Source: Nitrosopumilus sp.
GTDB taxonomy: Archaea; Thermoproteota; Nitrososphaeria; Nitrososphaerales; Nitrosopumilaceae
Direction of reading: 5' to 3'
Assembly: GCA_965224195.1 (NCBI GenBank)
Contig: OZ245040.1
Span: forward strand, 1,280,001 to 1,344,000
DNA: 64,000 nt
Shown in pieces: positions 32,917 to 56,168 of this stretch (position 1 is its first letter; each line of letters opens with the position of its first letter). The position numbers and the translations under genes are program-made. The notes beneath the pieces are model-generated. The model did no database searches. It was not told where the DNA came from and saw only the letters and a list, made by a program, of their open reading frames with translations.

Positions 32917-32980
32917 CTAATTAGAAGAAGCTAATTAGAAGAAGCTAATTAGAAGAAGCTAATTAGAAGAAGCTAATTAG
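32917..32980. repeat. 14-bp tandem repeat CTAATTAGAAGAAG x4 + CTAATTAG
   Basis: Exact units start at 32917, 32931, 32945 and 32959, with a partial unit at 32973; overlaps the 18-bp palindrome AATTAGTTTAAACTAATT (32905-32922). Confidence 0.97.
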
Positions 32981-43325: not shown

Positions 43326-43390
43326 GATCTAATCTAATGACAGTATCTATTAAACTAGATTACAACATCTATGATACTCCAATAACCCTT

Positions 43391-45102
43391 ATGCTTTTAA
43401 TACTGAGCAAAAAAGATGTAATCCTGTCTTTATTAGAAAAATTCCCAGATCATTTCACTCCTAGAGAAATTCAAAAAGAGATCATTTCACAAATAGAGGA
43501 GAAATTGAAATCTGGATTTAAAAAAATCATTCTATGTGCTCCTACTGGTGTAGGAAATCCCTTGTTGGTGCAACCATTTCAAATTATTTTGAAAGTTCAT
43601 TCACAGTAACTGCATCAAAACACCTTCAAGATCAATATATCAAAGATATTCCATTTCTAAAGCCTGTAAAAGGCAAGCAAAACTTCCCATGTCTCAAACT
43701 TATGGAATCTGAAAAAGTTGAGAATGATAGAAGAGCCATGAGGTGGGGTTTGACCTGTGACAAAGGTGAATGTCAGGAAAGAGTCTCGAAAAATGGCAAG
43801 GAAGTTTTTGAGGTATGTAAATTCAAGCCTACCATAAAACAGGTAGAAGATAACATTACAGACACAAAATCTTGTCACTATTACATGCAAAAATACGATG
43901 CACTAGTTTCCAATCATTCTCTCTGGAATTATCACGCATTTTTCACAATTATGAAATTCAACAAAAAACTTTTTGAAGACTATCTTGATAGAAAAGTAAC
44001 TGTTTTTGATGAGGCTCATAAAATTGAAGACCAAATAATCCAATTTGTTGGGTTTGACATTTTTGCAGGCTAAGTTGATGAATGTAATCTAAATTCAGAA
44101 AAATATGATTTTACAGATTTGGATTCTATGATTCAGTTAACTGACGATATGGCATTTTCATATGCTAAAAAAATCAAAGATATTAAAGAAAGTGCAGCTT
44201 TTCAAAATGATCCTGATTATGAATTGCTTACAGGATTAGAACGAAGACATGATAGGTCTGCACAAGCTAAAATTGACATAATGACTGACAAGGATAACTT
44301 TGTTGTAAATGATCCTCTTAAAGATTTGAATGGAAACTTTAGAACAATTTCTGTAAAGCCCATTGATGTTTCAAAGTTTGCAAATTCTTTTTTTGAAACA
44401 GAATACCAATTATTCATGTCTGCGACAATTGATAAAAATAGTTTCTGTGAAAACATGGGGTTGATAAAAGATGATGTTGCATTTGTCGATACTCCCAAAT
44501 CTCCTTTCCCAATTGAACATAGAAGTATAGATCTTCTAAATATTAAGAGACTTAGCTATGGCTCTACTGATGAAGATGAACTTGAAGTAATCAAAACAAT
44601 TGATAGGATAATGGATGAGCATTCAAACGAACGTGGATTAATTCTTACATCTTCTATTCCTAGATGCCAAAAAATTATTCGCTATCTTTCTCCAAAAAAT
44701 ACTCAAAGAATTAGACTCTGTCATAGTAAAAATAAGGATGACAAAACACAGGATGAAGTCATTTCTGAACATGCAACTGATCCTACGGGAGTTTTATTAT
44801 CTTCTTCTTTATGGGAAGGTGTTGATTTGAAAGATGATTTATCTAGGTTTCAAATTATTGCCAAAGTTCCATACCCAAATTATACTGAAAAGAGAACAAA
44901 AGCTAAAATGAATAAATTTCCATCATGGTACACTTCACAGACTTTGACTAAAATTCTACAAGGTTTTGGTCGCTCTATCCGAAGTGATGATGATTGGGCA
45001 AAAACATATGTCTTGGATACTGCTGTGAACAATGTATTTTTCAAGGGTCAACAAATAATTCCAAAGGCATACTATGATGTTTTAGGAATGGATGAGGTTT
45101 AA
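43391..45102 (+). pseudogene. XPD/Rad3/DinG-family Fe-S helicase, disrupted
   Basis: PREIQ, APTGVGK(S) broken by a 1-nt deletion at ~43556, Fe-S Cys cluster, DEAH, in-frame TAA 44071-44073, MSAT, WEGVD, KVPYP and QGFGRSIR motifs. Confidence 0.9.
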
Positions 45103-45111
45103 TTTTTTTAA

Positions 45112-45309
45112 TTATTTTCTTTCTGCACATGCACATTTGACATAAACCATTTTGAATTCGTCATCTGATTTTATGTTATGTGCCATTGGCTTTCTACATT
45201 GCTGACATTCTGTAAATCCAAAATATTCATCAACTTTGATCATTTTATAATCCCAGGATTTTTTTTCCTCATTCCAAAATACTGAGTTTATTTCAGATGG
45301 GCCATCCAT
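45112..45309 (-). CDS. Small Zn-binding hypothetical protein
   Basis: CQQC ... CAC. Confidence 0.7.
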   Translation of the reverse strand: MDGPSEINSVFWNEEKKSWDYKMIKVDEYFGFTECQQCRKPMAHNIKSDDEFKMVYVKCACAERK

Positions 45310-45620
45310 GAATAATTATGGAAATTGTTTCATTAATTAATTTTCTATCTATTTAGATTTTTAAAATATGATGATGTGGATAAAGATACTGAAAATCCAT
45401 ACATACCTGATAAAGGAAAACATGATGGTGAATTTTCAGAAAAATCTGGAACAATAATTACACTTAGAAAATTCCATAAACGAAGAACTCCAGAATGTTG
45501 GGATGGAGAGGGTGCTGTTATGTATGGGTTACAAGCTACCAGCATCATAATATGGATAATCATATAGATTACGTAATAAATATAAATATAAATATAAAAA
45601 AACTACAATAGTAACAGCCT

Positions 45621-46388
45621 ATGATTTCTGAGAGGACAATAATTATCTGCTCGTTTATTTTTGCACTGGCTGCAATCTCCTTTGCTTTTGAAGAGGTTTT
45701 TGAAGACATGTCAGGCCAGTATTTTATATCGCCAATAATTGAGCAAGATATGTACTTGGTAAGACAAGAACTTGCACAGCAGGCAGCATTTTTACAAAAC
45801 ATAAACAATGACTCGTACTTTCATGACATGATAAGTAAAACAGATGTTTATCAGGCCTTTGTAACAAAGTACCCACAACATCAGATTGACAGGACAGATA
45901 CAAACGATACCAGCATCATTTATACTGTATTTTATTCTGATTATGTAAGCCCCTATGCTGCAATTATGGTTGACTTTGAGATCTCATGGGTGGGAGCCAT
46001 ATCCACAGAACATAGATGCATGGTCGATGGCTATCACCTAAAAAAACACAACGCCATGCCTACTACAATGTGGATAAATGCAGGAGTATGCCAAGATGTC
46101 ATCTCTGAGAGCAGAGAAGAAAGGGGAGCCTCAGATGTAACGTATTTTGATACCGAGTTTGATGATATGTTACTTGATGCATTTGATGAACTCCAAGAAA
46201 GGATTGCAGGCAATTACTCGCCTGTCAGCGGCGTTACGCTAGATAGTGTAAATCTTGAAGGTGACGTCATAATACTGTTTGTAGATGTCTCAGATATGGA
46301 TTCATCGCAGCCATTGACAGGTGTAACTGATAGTGTTTTGGATCTCTTTGAGCATACAGTACCAATAGAGATTGTATTTCTTGAATAG
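45621..46388 (+). CDS. Secreted hypothetical protein (island)
   Basis: N-terminal signal peptide; GC-richer than the flanks. Confidence 0.8.
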   Translation: MISERTIIICSFIFALAAISFAFEEVFEDMSGQYFISPIIEQDMYLVRQELAQQAAFLQNINNDSYFHDMISKTDVYQAFVTKYPQHQIDRTDTNDTSIIYTVFYSDYVSPYAAIMVDFEISWVGAISTEHRCMVDGYHLKKHNAMPTTMWINAGVCQDVISESREERGASDVTYFDTEFDDMLLDAFDELQERIAGNYSPVSGVTLDSVNLEGDVIILFVDVSDMDSSQPLTGVTDSVLDLFEHTVPIEIVFLE

Positions 46389-46501
46389 CATGTCGTATTG
46401 TGCATTTATACTTGTTTTACGGATATTACTCCCCAGACTTTGCCGTCGTACCAATAGAGATTGTATTTCTTGAATAGCATGTCGTATTGTGCATTTATAC
46501 T
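46359..46501. repeat. 54-bp exact direct repeat x2 flanking a 35-bp unique insert
   Basis: Copies at 46359-46412 and 46448-46501; insert TGTTTTACGGATATTACTCCCCAGACTTTGCCGTC. Confidence 0.95.
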
Positions 46502-49500
46502 GCTACTTTTTACAGCATATTGCACTGTTACATATGGTACGGCATATGCTACAATAGTTGATGATCGTGAATTTCCCGAAGCCCCAATCAAAATTAAACC
46601 AGTTACATATGGTACGGCATATGCTACAATAGTTGATGCCTCAGAAGGCTCATCTATACCAGGATGTGAAACCACATCGACATGTTTTGTGCCTTACCAG
46701 ACAACAGTAGGCAAAGGAGAGACTGTCAACTGGCGCAACCCAACATCTACTGCACATACTGTCACAAGCGGCACACTTGGTACGCCTAATGGTGTGTTTG
46801 ATAGTGGCTTTATGAACCCTGGCACAGAGTATTCTTTTACGTTTGATAATACGGGAGACTATCACTACTTTTGCATGTTTCATCCGTGGATGAAAGGTGT
46901 CATCACGTCAACTGACAACCACAAGGCTGCAAAGCAAACGACTCCAGAGACTCAAAGGCATTGCAAGAACCCAAAACAATTTTTCATGCAGGGGATAGTG
47001 CAAAATACAATATTTGAGGATTTTGAAGTGTACTGCAGGTATGCCAAGGCATCACAAGATGATGCGTTCTCATATGATATCCAACCGCCAAAAAAACCTC
47101 AAAGGACAATGTATGGCATTACATCTGATGACGCACTTGGAACGCGCTCCCTTAATGCAATGCTTTCTGTAAAGCGCACATCAGACAGTAATGCAAACAA
47201 CTATGGTAGTACAAACAACGGCCAGCTGCATGTTGCATCGTTTGTGCCAAAACTGCATATGCTATCAGCTGATGTATATTCTAAGGACATTTCAGCTGCA
47301 AGCTACAGCGGGACTGGCGGCTCTACTACAAAAGTTACCATCATATATCATACCCAAGACAATGACCAAAATGCATTAATTATTACGCCTCACTATGTGG
47401 GAAACCTACACAGCAAGGCATACACGCTTGAGCAAAGCCTGAACACAAAGCGCATAATGCTTGAGAACACCGGACAGATGTCTTGGAAGCATATACAGTA
47501 TGACGTTAGGGACATTTACAACCAAAGCGGTTTTGGCAACTATGACTCTGATGTTGTCTTGTGGAGCCTGTACATTGGAGGCCAGTCATACACGTCATCT
47601 TTGGGCATTGCGTCATGGAGCATAAACATTGACAACCTGTTTGTAACTGATGGTACCTCAGATGCAATCCCGCCTGCATCATACCAGCTTGCAGTAGGTG
47701 TAAAGCCTGAAAACATCTTTTGCAAAAAAGACAAAACCCTTGTATTTAGGATATCTGATAGTGCACCAGTATGCATAAAGGACTCTAGCACAGAAAAAAT
47801 ATACAGTATAGGATATGCAATACCTGCACACACGACAGATGGCACGGCATTGTCTGAGAAGATAAAGTTAAAAAAACAGATGCTTGCATCAATTCTCACT
47901 GATCACTTTTCCCAAAAACCAGACATGTCTACGACCTCTTTTGCCAATGACATTGATGCATACAAGCATCGCATCGCATACAAGATATCTGTCCTAAACA
48001 AACTGGCATCGCCTTCTGGCAACATATCCCTTGACCGGGGGTTTGCAATGTCTACCGGCGGTAATTTTGGGGATGAAAGTTCATGGAATCTTAGAGAGTC
48101 AGGCGAATCATTTGGCATGATCCAAAGAGGCCCAGAATCTGCTACTGAAGCAGAACATGCAGGTTCGGACATATCCCTGCAGTACACTGATTATGTGGAA
48201 TTCTCAAAGACAAATGTGCATGTGATTGGAGTAGACGAACCAGATTTTGTAAAAAATGACGCCAAAAGCATCTATGTGATATCAAACGAAAACGACATCG
48301 CCGTACTTGATGCATCACATGCCAAAGGCCTTGAGATTTTATCTGAGACATCACCGCATAACGATGATGCAAAATCAATACTGCTATACCAAGACATGCT
48401 AATTGTCCTATCTGATGTTGATGAAAAGACGCAGATTACAATGCTTGATGCTGCCGTGTTTCCTCCTGCAAAAAAGCACCAGTTTGCAATTGATTCAAAG
48501 CTACACGATGTAAGGATGATACAAGATACAATCTATATAATTACCCGCTCAAGTGCGCCACAGTCACCTGTGCTATATGACATGATCCAAGGCACACATG
48601 TAATTGAAAGGCCTGCAATGCATTATTTTGAGCACAACCTAATGGCTGATTCCTTGTATACTGTTACTGCCATGCAGATGCAAGACGGTAATGTGCTAAA
48701 GGCCAGTTCTGACTCTTATGTACTAGGCCAGTATGATGTGGTCTATGTCTCAGAGGATAACATCTACCTTTCGTACGTACAGCCATACTCCCAGGCCTCG
48801 TCTGCACTCTTTGATGACGGGTTTTTCTTTGGGTATGCCATAGACAGCCTAAAGCCGCAACAGCTTGCATACCTGTACAGCCTGGCATCAGAGATTGGCA
48901 TGGGCTCTGACAGCATGGTAAAAGACGAGATGGCTGATGTAGTATTTGCAGCATTTGACAGGAATGATGTAGGAGACATAAAAGCTGGCCTGACTGATGC
49001 TGGTATGGATTTCTCAGTGTTTGGTGCCATGCCGCATACTGTAATACATAAGATTGGAGTTGATGAAACAGAGATAAACTATGTTGCATCGGCAAGCATA
49101 AAGGGAACACTGCTAAACCAGTTTGCACTTGACCAGAAGGGAGATGATACCCTCAGGGCAGTTACAAGCTTTTGGCAAGACGGCGTGCTCTCAAGCAACA
49201 TATATGTCTTAGATGATACACTAAAACTTGCCGGCTCCCTTGAAGGCATAGCGCCAGGCGAGACACTGCACTCTACGCGCTTTGCAGGTGACTGGTTGTA
49301 TCTTGTCACATTTAGGCAGGTTGATCCGTTCTTTGTAATAGATGTCTCCTCTGAACATCCAATGGTATTGGGGGAACTGAAGATACCTGGGTACTCAGAG
49401 TACCTGCAAAACTATGATGAGGGGCACGTCATTGGGATTGGAAGGGACACCAACCGCAACCAATGGGACCAGACAACTGATGCGGGCATCAAGATATCGA

Positions 49501-49868
49501 TGTTTGATGTGACAGACTTTGAGAATCCAAAGGAGACGCACAGCATAATAATAGGGGATCACTCAACAGCCTCTGTAGGACTGGTGGAGCACAAGTCCAT
49601 ACTCCTTGACAAAAACAAAAAGATAATCAGCATACCTGTAAGGTTTGGAAACGAACTGTTCTTCTACCTGTATACAGTAGATGACAAATACATGCTTCAT
49701 GAACACTCCAAGATACCACATACACTGGATCCTGCAAACCCACAGCATGTGCGCTCATTTTACATTAAAGACACACTGTACACTGTGACACCTGCAATGG
49801 TAAAGGCAAACAGCCTCCTTGAGCATGATTTAACCCATGGCAGTATATCCCTTGGCATGAAGAAATGA
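46479..49868 (+). CDS. Large secreted mosaic protein: cupredoxin + unknown domain + thaumarchaeal Cys module + beta-propeller domain (Beta_propel-like)
   Basis: Signal peptide from ATG 46479; HTVTSG...YFCMFHPWMKG; PPASYQLAVGVKPENIFC...PVC; FSKTNVHVIGVDEPDFVKND...LNQFALD...YLVTFRQVDPFFVID...LGELKIPGYSEYL. Confidence 0.88.
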   Translation: MSYCAFILLLFTAYCTVTYGTAYATIVDDREFPEAPIKIKPVTYGTAYATIVDASEGSSIPGCETTSTCFVPYQTTVGKGETVNWRNPTSTAHTVTSGTLGTPNGVFDSGFMNPGTEYSFTFDNTGDYHYFCMFHPWMKGVITSTDNHKAAKQTTPETQRHCKNPKQFFMQGIVQNTIFEDFEVYCRYAKASQDDAFSYDIQPPKKPQRTMYGITSDDALGTRSLNAMLSVKRTSDSNANNYGSTNNGQLHVASFVPKLHMLSADVYSKDISAASYSGTGGSTTKVTIIYHTQDNDQNALIITPHYVGNLHSKAYTLEQSLNTKRIMLENTGQMSWKHIQYDVRDIYNQSGFGNYDSDVVLWSLYIGGQSYTSSLGIASWSINIDNLFVTDGTSDAIPPASYQLAVGVKPENIFCKKDKTLVFRISDSAPVCIKDSSTEKIYSIGYAIPAHTTDGTALSEKIKLKKQMLASILTDHFSQKPDMSTTSFANDIDAYKHRIAYKISVLNKLASPSGNISLDRGFAMSTGGNFGDESSWNLRESGESFGMIQRGPESATEAEHAGSDISLQYTDYVEFSKTNVHVIGVDEPDFVKNDAKSIYVISNENDIAVLDASHAKGLEILSETSPHNDDAKSILLYQDMLIVLSDVDEKTQITMLDAAVFPPAKKHQFAIDSKLHDVRMIQDTIYIITRSSAPQSPVLYDMIQGTHVIERPAMHYFEHNLMADSLYTVTAMQMQDGNVLKASSDSYVLGQYDVVYVSEDNIYLSYVQPYSQASSALFDDGFFFGYAIDSLKPQQLAYLYSLASEIGMGSDSMVKDEMADVVFAAFDRNDVGDIKAGLTDAGMDFSVFGAMPHTVIHKIGVDETEINYVASASIKGTLLNQFALDQKGDDTLRAVTSFWQDGVLSSNIYVLDDTLKLAGSLEGIAPGETLHSTRFAGDWLYLVTFRQVDPFFVIDVSSEHPMVLGELKIPGYSEYLQNYDEGHVIGIGRDTNRNQWDQTTDAGIKISMFDVTDFENPKETHSIIIGDHSTASVGLVEHKSILLDKNKKIISIPVRFGNELFFYLYTVDDKYMLHEHSKIPHTLDPANPQHVRSFYIKDTLYTVTPAMVKANSLLEHDLTHGSISLGMKK
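46527..46638. repeat. 37-bp exact direct repeat x2 flanking a 38-bp unique insert (CRISPR-like unit)
   Basis: GTTACATATGGTACGGCATATGCTACAATAGTTGATG at 46527-46563 and 46602-46638; insert ATCGTGAATTTCCCGAAGCCCCAATCAAAATTAAACCA. Confidence 0.95.
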
Positions 49869-50344
49869 GCAGGCTTTGCTTTCTTACAAAGAAGAGGTTT
49901 GCAGTGCCCATACTTGTAATGGCAGGCATTGGAGTTTTATTTACTGCGATAATTTTTGCAGTTGCATTTTCATCGTTTCTTACTTTCGTGTCTGCAGAGT
50001 TTGCAAAGACATTTGGTCCTACATACAAGGATGTTGCAGTAAACAGGTGTCAGCTTTATGACAAAGGCTCAAGCGGCATATTCAACGGAACCTATTCAGA
50101 CGGCACAAAGAACTGGAACAATGCTAACTTCCCTGACAACAGATGCACGCACAGCATAATACTGCTTTTACCTGATAAGACAAAACCGATAACAGATGAG
50201 GTACAGTGCCATGGTCAGTATGATAAAATGGTACAACATACACGCAACGCTAATGTGGAGTTTTGCACAACAGAGAGCTTACAGGTGTGCCAGGACGCAC
50301 TGACGCTGATACATTATGATGAATTTAAAAAAGACGTTTGCTAA
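49865..50344 (+). CDS. Membrane-anchored Cys-containing hypothetical protein (island)
   Basis: Start overlaps the upstream stop (ATGA); N-terminal TM helix; several Cys. Confidence 0.75.
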   Translation: MSRLCFLTKKRFAVPILVMAGIGVLFTAIIFAVAFSSFLTFVSAEFAKTFGPTYKDVAVNRCQLYDKGSSGIFNGTYSDGTKNWNNANFPDNRCTHSIILLLPDKTKPITDEVQCHGQYDKMVQHTRNANVEFCTTESLQVCQDALTLIHYDEFKKDVC

Positions 50345-50666
50345 TGCAGCTTTGCTAACTGACTACACACATTACAGCCAGTCTTGTGCAGCAGTTTCTG
50401 CAACAATCAATGCGGCATGAAATGGTATTACCTGAATCACTTATATTATAAACCAAGTTCCTACCAAAAAACTTGAATCAGATAAGGACCATGCCACATC
50501 ATTGTTTAACCACATCCCAACTGACACACCTGAGATCATACAGATAGTTCTGTCGGGTTATCGTCAGCTAGACACAAAATATGAATTTTCTCTAAATTGA
50601 AAAATTTGAAACCAGATAGAATTTACTTGTATGTAATACAATTTCACAACATCAAATCAATTAAAT

Positions 50667-50885
50667 TTAAGTAATCAAATTTTGACTTTTAAAATCAAGA
50701 CATTTTTCATCAAATTCATTGAGATATTTTTTAGTGTTAATGTTTGCATCCATTATGTATATTTCACATGTTTCTGAATCAATTAGTTGCTGAGAATTGC
50801 TACTGTTAGTCATTACTTGTAATGCAAGAATGCTTACTAGCGCAATTATCACAATTATTGCAAATTTCCTAGAGTAAATGTCCAT
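50667..50885 (-). CDS. Small membrane-anchored hypothetical protein
   Basis: N-terminal TM helix, two Cys. Confidence 0.65.
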   Translation of the reverse strand: MDIYSRKFAIIVIIALVSILALQVMTNSSNSQQLIDSETCEIYIMDANINTKKYLNEFDEKCLDFKSQNLIT

Positions 50886-50992
50886 AAATCATACCCGTTC
50901 ATTTTGAACTTAAATCTAATGATTCGAATATTGAATTGTCTGTTTTATTGTAATTGTAAGGGGTTTTTATGGTACACTTTACTCTGCAATGT

Positions 50993-51094
50993 GTGACTGA
51001 TATTGTTGTTTGCTCAAATTGTGGTTTATCATACTCTACAAAAGAAAATGATCTTTGTACTCATTGTAACTTTACCAACAAACCTCGTACCTAA
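50993..51094 (+). CDS. Zn-finger microprotein (33 aa)
   Basis: Read manually: VTDIVVCSNCGLSYSTKENDLCTHCNFTNKPRT. Confidence 0.5.
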   Translation: MTDIVVCSNCGLSYSTKENDLCTHCNFTNKPRT

Positions 51095-51230
51095 AATTAA
51101 TAGTTCTTGATATAGTTATTATCAGGATTAGAAAAAACTTCTGATGTGGGATTCAAAAAAGGTATTCACAAATGTGTGGAATGTGAAAAGAAGATCAAAG
51201 AAAATCCTGATGATGCAGGTATGTGTAGTA

Positions 51231-51328
51231 GATGAGTTGCGCAATTACAAGCAAAAATCTAACTTTTCTGTCATTTAATTCTTAATTTTATGGAATTGCA
51301 ATGAATTCTTCTTTCCATTTAATCTTGA
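51231..51328 (-). mobile_element. 98-bp terminal fragment of the IS found at 31241-32305
   Basis: Matches 31241-31338 with 4 mismatches and starts at the IR GATGAGTTGCGCAATTA after TA; cuts a small CxxC ORF beginning ~51146. Confidence 0.92.
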
Positions 51329-51725
51329 TTAATGATATTTCCCTCTATGTAGAGTTTCATCCTTTGCTGTCATGGGTGAGACAATCTGAAGCAGATGAAT
51401 CATTACTAAATCACGAGCAAGGCAATTTTGACTTGGCTGAACTAGTAAAACGTGAAAATATTATAAATCTACAAGAGCAATTTTACAAAAAACATTTCTC
51501 AACCCGAGGACAAAATGATGAACAACGAAAACAATTTGCAAAAGAAGATTCTGGTAAAATGATTAATGAACAAGTGGAAAAATTACAAAATCTCTTTGAT
51601 GAAAGATCTCAGAAATACCAAAATGAAACAGATTATGGAGAGAATCTTGAGGAACAATCCGGGTATAATTTGACTTTCAAGCAATTACGGACATAATTTG
51701 TCTTGCAGTGTAGTCTGCTTTGTTA
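51323..51725 (+). pseudogene. 5'-truncated duplicate of the DUF922-like gene and its 3' flank (41545-41947)
   Basis: Colinear near-identical copy at a constant offset of 9778 nt with scattered substitutions. Confidence 0.92.
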
Positions 51726-51858
51726 ATGGTAAAACGAGGTTTTTTTGGGTAAAGTAAGGTTACTAGCTTGTGTAGATTTCAGCTTGTGTGAATATTATAG
51801 TCTTCAGACAAAGCTGTTTTTACTCAAATTATATATTAGATATTTTTGTTTTGCAATT

Positions 51859-52379
51859 ATGGGTGTCTTTAGTGATAACTGAAAACGACGTAAACGAATT
51901 ATTGACCAAATATACAGTAAAAGAATTTTTAGACTTGGTTGATGCTGAAACAGCATCTTTAGATTATAGATCCAAAGTTATAGTTGCTAATATCCGAATT
52001 GAACAATTAATGGAATGTATCATCATTAAAAATTTCAAGAACCATGAAGATTTAATTGAATTTGATTCTTCTAAAAAACAAAAAATCCTCTTTGGATTAG
52101 GAATACTTGGTAAAGACTTGAACTATTAACTCAAAATTACTAATCAAATACGAAACACATTTGCACATGAAATTAATCCAATAGAAAACAAAGTACCACA
52201 TCTCATAAAGAAATCCAAATTTTATGATAAAACTAAAGCATCCAAAACCGATAACCCAATTAATCAGGCTGTAAAATATGGGATGGTTGCAGGCATGATT
52301 ATAGGCCTGTTGACGAGGTATTTGGCAGAAATTCTTTGGGAAACTAATTCTAAGAATAAAAAGCAGTAACAATCGCTAA
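51859..52379 (+). pseudogene. HEPN-like (MtlR/MAE_28990-type) protein with in-frame TAA
   Basis: ...IEQLMECII...KQKILFGLGIL...LNY*LKITNQIRNTFAHEINP: RxxxxH motif lies beyond the stop at 52127-52129. Confidence 0.6.
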
Positions 52380-55257: not shown

Positions 55258-55862
55258 CTTCAAGAACTGCAGCAAAAAGGAATCTGGAGGAAGATTCTAT
55301 CTGAACTAATCAAAACAGCTCACAAGTACAGCAAGATTAACATGCAGAAAATATCAGTTGACTCATCAACAATCCACAATAAAAAAGGGGCGACGTAACC
55401 GGATATGACGGATTCAAGAAGATTCTAGGCACAAAGATACATGTTGCAGTAGAGCAAAATGGATTGCCAATATCAATTGTAATGAGTCCTGCAAATAAGC
55501 ATGACAGTACCAAATTCATTGACGTTATGGAAAACATTTCAGAATTCATAGATGATAAAATGGCTCAACAAATTATTTCAGTCTATGCAGACAAGGGTTA
55601 TGATGCTGCATACATTAGAAATTATTTGAGATGTAATGGAATTGGATGTTGTATTCCATACAAGAGTAATTCCAAATTTATCGTACCAAAAAAACATACA
55701 GAACAATACAGCAAGACAAGGTTTGTAGTGGAACGGTTCTTTGCATGGTTGAAAAATGGTTTGCACAGAACAAGAATTAGATATGAGAAGAATTGTGATA
55801 ACTATCTGGGATTTGTTTACTTGGCATGTATCATGATGTATTGGAGGGTTTTAGGATAAGTT
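55258..55862 (+). mobile_element. 5'-truncated IS5-family element (two-ORF transposase with AAAAAAGGGG frameshift site)
   Basis: ORFA remnant LQELQQKGIWRKIL...ISVDSSTIHNKKGAT*; -1 frame GYDGFKKILGTKIHVAV...HD...ADKGYD...RFVVERFFAWLK...RYEK. Confidence 0.88.
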
Positions 55863-56168
55863 GATAATCTGTCTCCACAAACATGAGGATCAGATTCCAC
55901 TCCGCCTTCATATCCAAAAGATTCCTGTACTCCAATGATTCCAACTAAAACTAGTAGAATTACTGCCCACACAAATCTGATTTCTCATAAGAACCTCATA
56001 AAGTTTTCTACTCTTGAGTTCCGTTATCTAATGTGGTAACCGTCTTGATGGCAATTGTCTTTAGTAGATAACAGTAATTTGATAAGCATAAGTTGATTTC
56101 TTTTTCCTGTTATCTCTGATGAGTATCTGAGATCGCGATCTATAAATCTTATGGATAAACTGTTCTTT

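Follow-up and report, generated by a model that had tools for sequence, protein, structure and literature searches.

Here, we propose that a short repeat-insert-repeat unit at positions 46527-46638 of a 64,000-nucleotide (nt) stretch of a Nitrosopumilus sp. genome is very probably the scar of a natural off-target (non-canonical) spacer integration by Cas1-Cas2, the adaptation complex of CRISPR systems. The stretch, hereafter the window, corresponds to C1:1280001-1344000 of a two-contig genome (G000) of 2.07 Mb with a GC content of 0.336, and the unit lies near the start of a gene for a secreted cupredoxin protein. A natural ectopic spacer acquisition by Cas1-Cas2 had been suggested in the initial annotation of the window, and this suggestion is supported by the cas1 genes and arrays of the genome, by the geometry shared between the unit, its siblings and the arrays, by inserts that copy the chromosome itself, by empty sites, and by a frequency of units that appears linked to cas1.

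The repeat-insert-repeat unit

The unit consists of an exact 37-nt direct repeat (GTTACATATGGTACGGCATATGCTACAATAGTTGATG) on either side of a unique 38-nt insert, with a start-to-start spacing of 75 nt, just as first described (coordinates in Table 1). Because 37 + 38 = 75 nt, the reading frame is kept and 25 residues are gained after the signal peptide, which is borne out by the open reading frame (ORF) translated from the ATG at 46479 (MSYCAFILLLFTAYCTVTYGTAYATIVDDREFPEAPIKIKPVTYGTAYATIVDASEGSS...), where the peptide VTYGTAYATIVD is present twice, separated by DREFPEAPIKIKP. The repeat is not attributable to chance, as the 64-kb window holds only two exact direct-repeat pairs of at least 20 nt lying no more than 400 nt apart (simple tandem arrays excluded), namely this 37-nt pair and a 54-nt pair close by. 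The insert is unlike the sequence around it, in comparison both with the following 38 nt and with nearby DNA.

The hairpin with a 6-nt loop that had been noticed in the repeat is also predicted by folding (6-bp stem, -7.4 kcal/mol) and is out of register with the hairpin of the repeat of the type I-G array of this genome. No Rfam match was found within 44000-52000 of the window. A bona fide CRISPR array at 46527 was considered and rejected, there being just two copies of a repeat that is coding sequence and unique in the genome. The closest cas locus is ~130 kb away.

Host CRISPR-Cas systems and matching geometry

The genome has three cas1 genes, all of them open frames without stops and each adjoining a large array, with repeats of 36, 30 and 37 nt (Table 1). 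The Cas4g/Cas1g fusion of the type I-G locus reaches a profile score of 714.7 bits (cut-off 560), Cas2 is found next to two of the three cas1 genes, and Cas4 is adjacent or fused to all three. A comparison of the unit with these genuine repeats and cas1 genes, which had been put forward as a check in the initial annotation, gives matching geometry: the 37-nt duplication has the length of the host repeats (36 nt in the I-G array, 37 nt in the I-B-like array), and the 38-nt insert falls within the 32-48 nt range of the array spacers (modes 35-37), 22 of 288 of which are exactly 38 nt long.

How might such a unit arise? The Cas1-Cas2 adaptation complex, carrying a prespacer of ~38 nt, would attack both strands of the cupredoxin gene at points 37 bp from each other, where its normal targets would be the borders of a CRISPR repeat, and gap repair would then duplicate the 37-bp target on both sides of the new spacer. 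The prime suspect would be the type I-G Cas4/Cas1 fusion together with Cas2 (36-nt array repeat), with the I-B-like system and its 37-nt repeat as the alternative.

Three solitary look-alikes of the 30-nt I-B repeat (5-8 mismatches) lie outside the arrays and within 5 kb of one another, at C1:790579, 793712 and 795315.

A genome-wide catalogue of sibling units

The unit in the cupredoxin gene has many siblings. In a scan for close direct repeats outside periodic protein repeats, 34 of the 135 exact pairs that stood isolated were spaced 69-76 nt apart, each with a different sequence, which amounts to a sharp excess at one spacing. A mismatch-tolerant scan of the genome gave 59 isolated candidates, reduced to 41 by a spacing limit and the removal of self-similarity; three of these (778956, 1129510 and 1911472) were dropped, as their similarity continues past the repeat in the manner of coding tandem repeats. 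The final catalogue holds 38 duplication-plus-insert units, the two of the window included, of the kind for which a genome scan had been advised. Every unit has its own repeat, and the spacing is 70-76 nt in 33 of the 38. The repeat copies are identical in 26 units and differ by 1-2 substitutions in the other 12, which have therefore aged. Among the 26 exact units the duplication measures 35-39 nt in 22, the remainder being 30, 43, 46 and 54 nt, and inserts are 32-40 nt long. Two units (C1:912671 and 1228750) have duplications of ~30 nt, in keeping with the 30-nt array.

Sibling units are placed in insertion sequence (IS)-like genes, short ORFs and intergenic DNA. In silico removal of the unit restores a longer ORF in seven cases, and seven other units, including the one at 46527, lengthen an ORF in frame. 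Multicopy DNA is present within 200 nt of 18 of the 38 units; among 1000 positions drawn at random, 236 have such DNA nearby (odds ratio 2.9, P = 0.0015). The surroundings of the units are GC-richer than average (Mann-Whitney P = 3e-6). Clustering is mild: two pairs lie less than 200 nt apart (C1:912527/912671 and 46359/46527 of the window) where, by a rough estimate, ~0.14 pairs within 200 nt are expected for 38 random sites, which hints at local hot spots. These patterns of multicopy DNA, GC content and clustering may reflect either a preference for certain targets or survival in dispensable DNA.

None of the units has expanded into a multi-spacer array. Distant from all cas loci, at C1:1626224-1626320, is an orphan degenerate mini-array, in which one I-G-like repeat (4 mismatches) is followed 74 nt on by part of a second copy. 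The unit at C1:1159163 has flanks 89-95% identical to segments at C1:716.6 kb and 723.0 kb, inside the type I-G cas locus; hence a partial second copy of cas-locus DNA exists and has itself been hit. The small second contig, C2 (7434 bases, GC 0.31), is free of close direct repeats and is matched by none of the array spacers or ectopic spacers.

Origin and composition of the inserts

The inserts resemble array spacers in composition, with a mean GC content of 0.420 as compared with 0.414 for the 288 array spacers and 0.336 for the genome. Chromosomal DNA up to 1.6 Mb distant is copied over the full length (34-39 nt) and at 92-100% identity in eight of the 38, with homology that stops precisely at the insert borders; for the other 30 no source was found in the genome. 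Among the 288 array spacers, by comparison, none has a full-length match outside the arrays and one has an 18-nt word match. This contrast is expected if a self-derived spacer kills the cell when it sits in an expressed array and does no harm in other places.

A transposon or miniature inverted-repeat transposable element with target-site duplication was also considered as the source of the inserts. The inserts differ at each site, and an all-against-all BLAST of the inserts of the 41 candidates returned only shared words of 8-11 nt, so that they are not a small mobile element.

Empty sites

Each unit with 200-nt flanks was compared with the genome by self-BLAST, the signature of an empty site being two high-scoring segment pairs whose subject ranges overlap by the length of the repeat. 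This signature was found for 10 of the 38 units, with paralogues at 98-99% identity for units 1363425 and 1892823. The unit at C1:1639458 sits in a multicopy IS-like gene. A single 37-nt copy without an insert is present in one paralogue from this genome and in homologues from three other species (G007, G015 and G009), and the alignment gap is exactly 71 nt. The sibling units are derived insertions with target duplication. In relatives, unit 739057 falls at a variable gene boundary with no clean empty site, and for the region around unit 1490408 no homologue was found in 60 genomes of the genus.

The window itself contains, at 55269-55873 (C1:1335269-1335873), a copy of the IS-like gene family that was hit by the unit at C1:1639458; several copies occur in this genome and in relatives.

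For the cupredoxin gene, a DNA search of 40 relatives matched the cupredoxin core alone (67-88% identity), a protein search with residues 1-260 gave one match (52% identity), and a metagenome scan gave two loci (47-52% identity); none of these searches found an orthologue of the 5' part of the gene. A cupredoxin domain at the N terminus was found in just two homologues, P0001 and the metagenome locus L163 (52% identity each). Both have a signal peptide, then 8-10 residues and then G[ST]S.PGCE, without the 25-residue insert. This layout is that of the window protein minus its 25 extra residues, in two homologues that are both distant. In a further locus, L164, the cupredoxin domain is internal and uninformative on the insert.

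A motif at one end of the target

A de novo motif search over both ends of the duplicated segments, allowing small offsets and with 60 random sets as control, found G-Y-T-R-M-A-A-T at one end (5.71 bits, as against 4.40 +/- 0.23 and a maximum of 4.98 in the random sets). Read as its reverse complement, this motif corresponds to how the host repeats end at their 3' side, ATTGAAGC / ATTGAAAC. The a-priori pattern GYTNCAAT is matched at six or more of its seven specified positions by 10 of 41 units and 6.1% of random sites (P = 1.3e-4), and at all seven by 4 of 41 units and 0.4% of random sites. Target choice appears to be non-random. The initial annotation had likened the GTTGATG end of the 37-nt duplication to the ends of CRISPR repeats, a likeness that did not hold: the repeat-like end is the opposite one, beginning GTT and read on the opposite strand, and its match at five of seven positions is within the common null range. 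The duplicated segments also fold slightly better than random 37-mers (-5.0 vs -3.9 kcal/mol, P = 0.004), from which no conclusion is drawn because they are GC-richer as well.

Units in related genomes

A Cas1 match was obtained in 21 of 60 genomes of the genus. The scan used on the present genome was applied in identical form to 1.2 Mb each of two relatives, G009 and G063. G009 carries two CRISPR-type cas1 genes and, in the 80 kb examined, an I-G-type array with a 37-nt repeat alongside an I-B array with a 30-nt repeat. It gave 21 candidates, with 16 rows at a spacing of 71-75 nt (one unit listed twice) and two of the ~30-nt type; insert GC was 0.45 vs 0.36 for its genome. G063, without a cas1 candidate, gave two candidates, one of them weak and at a spacing of 74. 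For the present genome, scanned as two overlapping 1.2-Mb halves, the numbers of candidates at a spacing of 70-76 were 15 and 27. Across the three genomes these counts are suggestive of an association between the units and cas1. The I-G module would be the prime suspect because, in the part of G009 that was examined (all but ~0.9 Mb), the only system seen with a 36-37-nt repeat is of type I-G.

Weighing off-target integration against its alternatives

Several observations count against an origin of the 46527 unit in off-target integration. No protospacer for its insert was found in its own genome, in phage records, in viral, genome and metagenome contigs or in 400 genomes of the family: the own-genome search returned only a 17-nt word (E = 0.003) and the phage-record search only words of 17-22 nt (E = 6), exact searches of the viral, genome and metagenome contigs gave 0 matches each (diverged protospacers would escape these), and the 400 genomes gave 0 matches at up to three mismatches. 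No protospacer adjacent motif (PAM) common to the eight self protospacers was seen by eye, though all three systems encode Cas4. An empty-site allele of this unit was not found, though ten of its siblings have one, and the 5' part of the gene had no DNA homologue in the relatives searched. The unit (GTTACATA) matches the target-end pattern at five of seven positions, and 29.5% of random sites have exactly that score. In G009 the pattern was not significantly enriched (six or more positions in 2 of 18 units, P = 0.25). Over-long duplications in exact units (43, 46 and 54 nt, plus one of 49 nt later dropped as a tandem repeat), the neighbour in the window among them, are unpredicted by a strict ruler. 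In addition, the association across genomes compares one cas1-positive with one cas1-negative relative and is not a statistical test, and the 46527 unit is known from assembled sequence. Because neither its own source nor an orthologue was found, what speaks for this unit is how exactly it fits the class typed by its siblings. We infer from these comparisons that a Cas1-Cas2 integrase would be responsible, that the choice among the three integrases would fall on the I-G enzyme, and that the unit would share its origin with its siblings.

Could the units come instead from an undescribed process independent of CRISPR, one that adds ~72 nt per event as a short genomic copy, often a hairpin, plus a compensating duplication of the target? 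This process would account for repeat and insert lengths that are anticorrelated (r = -0.57) with a sum held tightly at ~73 nt, and it would agree with the eight inserts that copy host DNA, with the good folding of some inserts (unit 739057, for example, at -13.1 kcal/mol) and with the lack of a shared PAM. However, a simple simulation, in which units were given a fixed 36/37-nt duplication, spacer lengths sampled from the arrays and chance identity at both borders, reproduces the mean of repeat plus insert (72.9 nt both observed and simulated), the anticorrelation (r = -0.48) and the spread of apparent duplication lengths. Moreover, the outlying sums are 66, 69, 80 and 89 nt and not 72, the inserts show no greater tendency to form hairpins than do the 288 array spacers (-3.2 vs -4.2 kcal/mol), the 30 inserts with no source in the genome have the GC content of array spacers, and the units are nearly missing from the relative without cas1. 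We consider this process unlikely.

An artefact of sequencing or assembly is more doubtful still. Chimeric reads, an error in gap closing or a k-mer loop can leave a false duplication with filler, and the near-constant lengths of both the repeat and the insert, in units seen in the assembly, are of the sort that k-mer artefacts can have. The fixed lengths are, however, those of the genome's own CRISPR units; the inserts are all different, and 30 of 38 are absent elsewhere in the assembly yet share the GC content of array spacers; a dozen units bear the marks of age described above; and the pattern recurs in another species, whose genome was assembled independently, but not in a third.

Replication slippage, in which an ordinary tandem duplication would have been followed by divergence of its middle part, is just as improbable as an artefact. 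Slippage is the usual source of direct repeats a short distance apart, and the three candidates dropped from the 41 are of that kind. It yields head-to-tail copies without an unrelated insert, whereas here the copies are 100% identical around a 38-nt middle that is unlike the 38 nt after the second copy or nearby DNA, and sibling inserts originate hundreds of kilobases away.

Lastly, a DNA-capture mechanism dedicated to the diversification of this surface protein, as the initial annotation had also entertained, is scarcely credible: it has in its favour two units that lie no more than 170 nt apart at the 5' end of a single gene for a secreted protein, with the genes intact, and against it that just two of the 38 units are at the cupredoxin gene while the others are scattered, with 18 beside multicopy DNA and seven that break ORFs, that spacings fall evenly over the three reading-frame classes (12/14/12), and that no diversity-generating gene adjoins the cupredoxin gene. 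Off-target integration by Cas1-Cas2 is the preferred reading.

Relation to known systems

Nivala, Shipman and Church (Nat Microbiol 2018) reportedly recovered 'neo-CRISPR' loci in E. coli over-producing type I-E Cas1-Cas2. As in those loci, the units described here have a spacer-sized insert and a repeat-length duplication of a non-CRISPR target, lie outside an array and can have inserts of self DNA. Unlike them, they are ~38 fixed scars in a wild archaeon with native I-G and I-B systems, their duplications are 36-37 bp long, and the pattern is present in a sister species.

Rare genomic off-target integration events are described as detected and attributed to Nivala, Shipman and Church 2018 (PMC7054753), whose neo-CRISPR work is also cited elsewhere (PMC9456107), and off-target integration has been said to be a possible seed of new arrays (PMC6698737). 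Natural evidence for such integration, drawn from two other species, has been called 'circumstantial' (10.1101/148544). The Cas1-Cas2 of Pyrococcus furiosus performs full-site integration in vitro at non-CRISPR sites, with attack points 30 bp apart (PMC6698737). Those attack points are one repeat length apart, and the targets have a few bases in common with the repeat, mainly at the borders (PMC6698737); the same logic would apply here. The P. furiosus work used plasmids in vitro and showed a 30-bp ruler and a G/C border preference (PMC6698737), whereas here there are in vivo scars, a 36-37-bp ruler and a G-Y-T-R-M-A-A-T end. In Streptococcus thermophilus, ectopic acquisition within CRISPR arrays also places spacers away from the leader-proximal repeat (PMC7999890, PMC5338259), but those events use true in-array repeats, while the target here is unrelated coding or non-coding DNA.

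Casposons, which are integrated by Cas1-like casposases, Nitrosopumilus included (PMC8464041, PMC4046053), offer another parallel. They share with the present units a Cas1-family integrase, staggered cuts, target-site duplication and the same archaeal group. However, casposons are kilobase-sized with terminal inverted repeats, and the inserts here are 32-40 nt long and all different. The target duplication of casposons, at ~14-15 bp, is much shorter than here. Also unlike the casposon setting, all three cas1 genes of this genome are within CRISPR-cas loci.

A limited literature search, PMC6563490 included, found no account of dispersed ectopic integration in Thaumarchaeota or Nitrosopumilus. 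The kind of event is known, and among its natural examples this genome is unusually rich.

Implications

Off-target spacer integration has been shown with over-expressed E. coli Cas1-Cas2 and in vitro, and is known mainly from such laboratory work. In light of the catalogue presented here, what might be the cause of so many events? One tentative answer, which we hold to be possible and somewhat short of probable, is that the type I-G Cas4/Cas1-Cas2 integrase of ammonia-oxidising Nitrosopumilus is intrinsically sloppy, making off-target integration a regular mutational force. If this were true, off-target integration would break genes and add in-frame peptides of 24-25 residues, as at the cupredoxin gene, the units would survive preferentially in, or be drawn to, mobile and accessory DNA, and self-derived spacers stored harmlessly outside arrays would be raw material for new arrays. 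A bolder form, in which hits on IS elements are useful to the cell because integration disables transposons, is not favoured by the evidence.

With ~38 dated natural events on one chromosome, and more in a sister species, there would be enough material to read the target preference of the integrase, its 36-37-bp ruler and its pool of prespacers, which includes self DNA never seen in functional arrays. The units would also make visible fitness-relevant side effects of CRISPR adaptation, namely broken genes, longer proteins and new upstream ORFs, and they are a plausible first step toward new arrays. Because type I-G adaptation has been little studied, the scars also provide testable substrates.

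Neighbouring unit and surrounding genes

A second duplication with an insert of spacer length, missing from the initial annotation, is located 115 nt upstream of the 37-nt unit (Table 1). Its repeat is 54 nt long and its insert 35 nt, with no other match to the insert in the genome. We think it probable, with some reserve, that this neighbour arose in the same way, its second cut having been mis-measured. The first 54-nt copy spans the last codons and the stop of the upstream ORF plus the first eight codons of the cupredoxin gene, and because the repeat holds both the upstream stop and the cupredoxin start codon, both genes survive the duplication. One product of the duplication is a 27-codon decoy ORF that shares the start and first eight codons of the real gene and ends in a TGA shortly before the real ATG. 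The host gene, whose product has a signal peptide, a cupredoxin domain at the N terminus and a beta-propeller domain at the C terminus, is intact despite both insertions.

Table 1. Features of the two units, their host gene and the CRISPR arrays of the genome (window coordinates)
Feature	Position	Strand	Remarks
First copy of duplicated 37-nt target	46527..46563	+	Exact repeat; encodes VTYGTAYATIVD at signal-peptide cleavage region
Spacer-like 38-nt insert	46564..46601	+	GC 0.39; adds 25 in-frame residues together with second repeat copy
Second copy of duplicated 37-nt segment	46602..46638	+	Exact repeat
First copy of neighbouring exact 54-nt duplication	46359..46412	+	Starts with GTACCAAT; 6/7 specified motif positions
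35-nt spacer-length insert of neighbouring unit	46413..46447	+	No other genomic match
Second copy of 54-nt duplication	46448..46501	+	Carries functioning start codon (ATG 46479) of cupredoxin gene
Decoy ORF, 27 codons	46390..46473	+	Product of 54-nt duplication
Host (cupredoxin) gene, 1129 codons	46479..49868	+	PF09826 at 5.5e-109, PF00127 at 2.3e-07
Upstream ORF, 255 residues	45621..46388	+	No Pfam family; intact; stop codon in first 54-nt copy
Array 1, 90 repeats of 36 nt			Modal spacers 36-37 nt; type I-G: Cas4g/Cas1g fusion, Cas2, Cas3g, Csb2, Cas7g
Array 2, 69 repeats of 30 nt			Modal spacers 36-37 nt; Cas4 and Cas1b
Array 3, 132 repeats of 37 nt			Modal spacers 35-36 nt; I-B-like: Cas7, Cas5, Cas3, Cas6b, Cas1, Cas2, Cas4

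Both units lie at the edge of a 4.7-kb stretch (45700-50500) with a GC content of 0.40-0.49 against a background of 0.31. The stretch holds the 255-residue ORF without a known family, the cupredoxin/beta-propeller gene and a 159-residue ORF, and it looks like acquired or accessory DNA. Further upstream, at 43337-45102, a Rad3/XPD-type helicase (DEAD_2 and Helicase_C_2) is apparently split over three consecutive plus-strand ORFs of 90, 179 and 327 residues and may be a broken gene. Elsewhere in the window, at 32917-32980, the 14-nt unit CTAATTAGAAGAAG forms a perfect tandem array of 4.6 copies.

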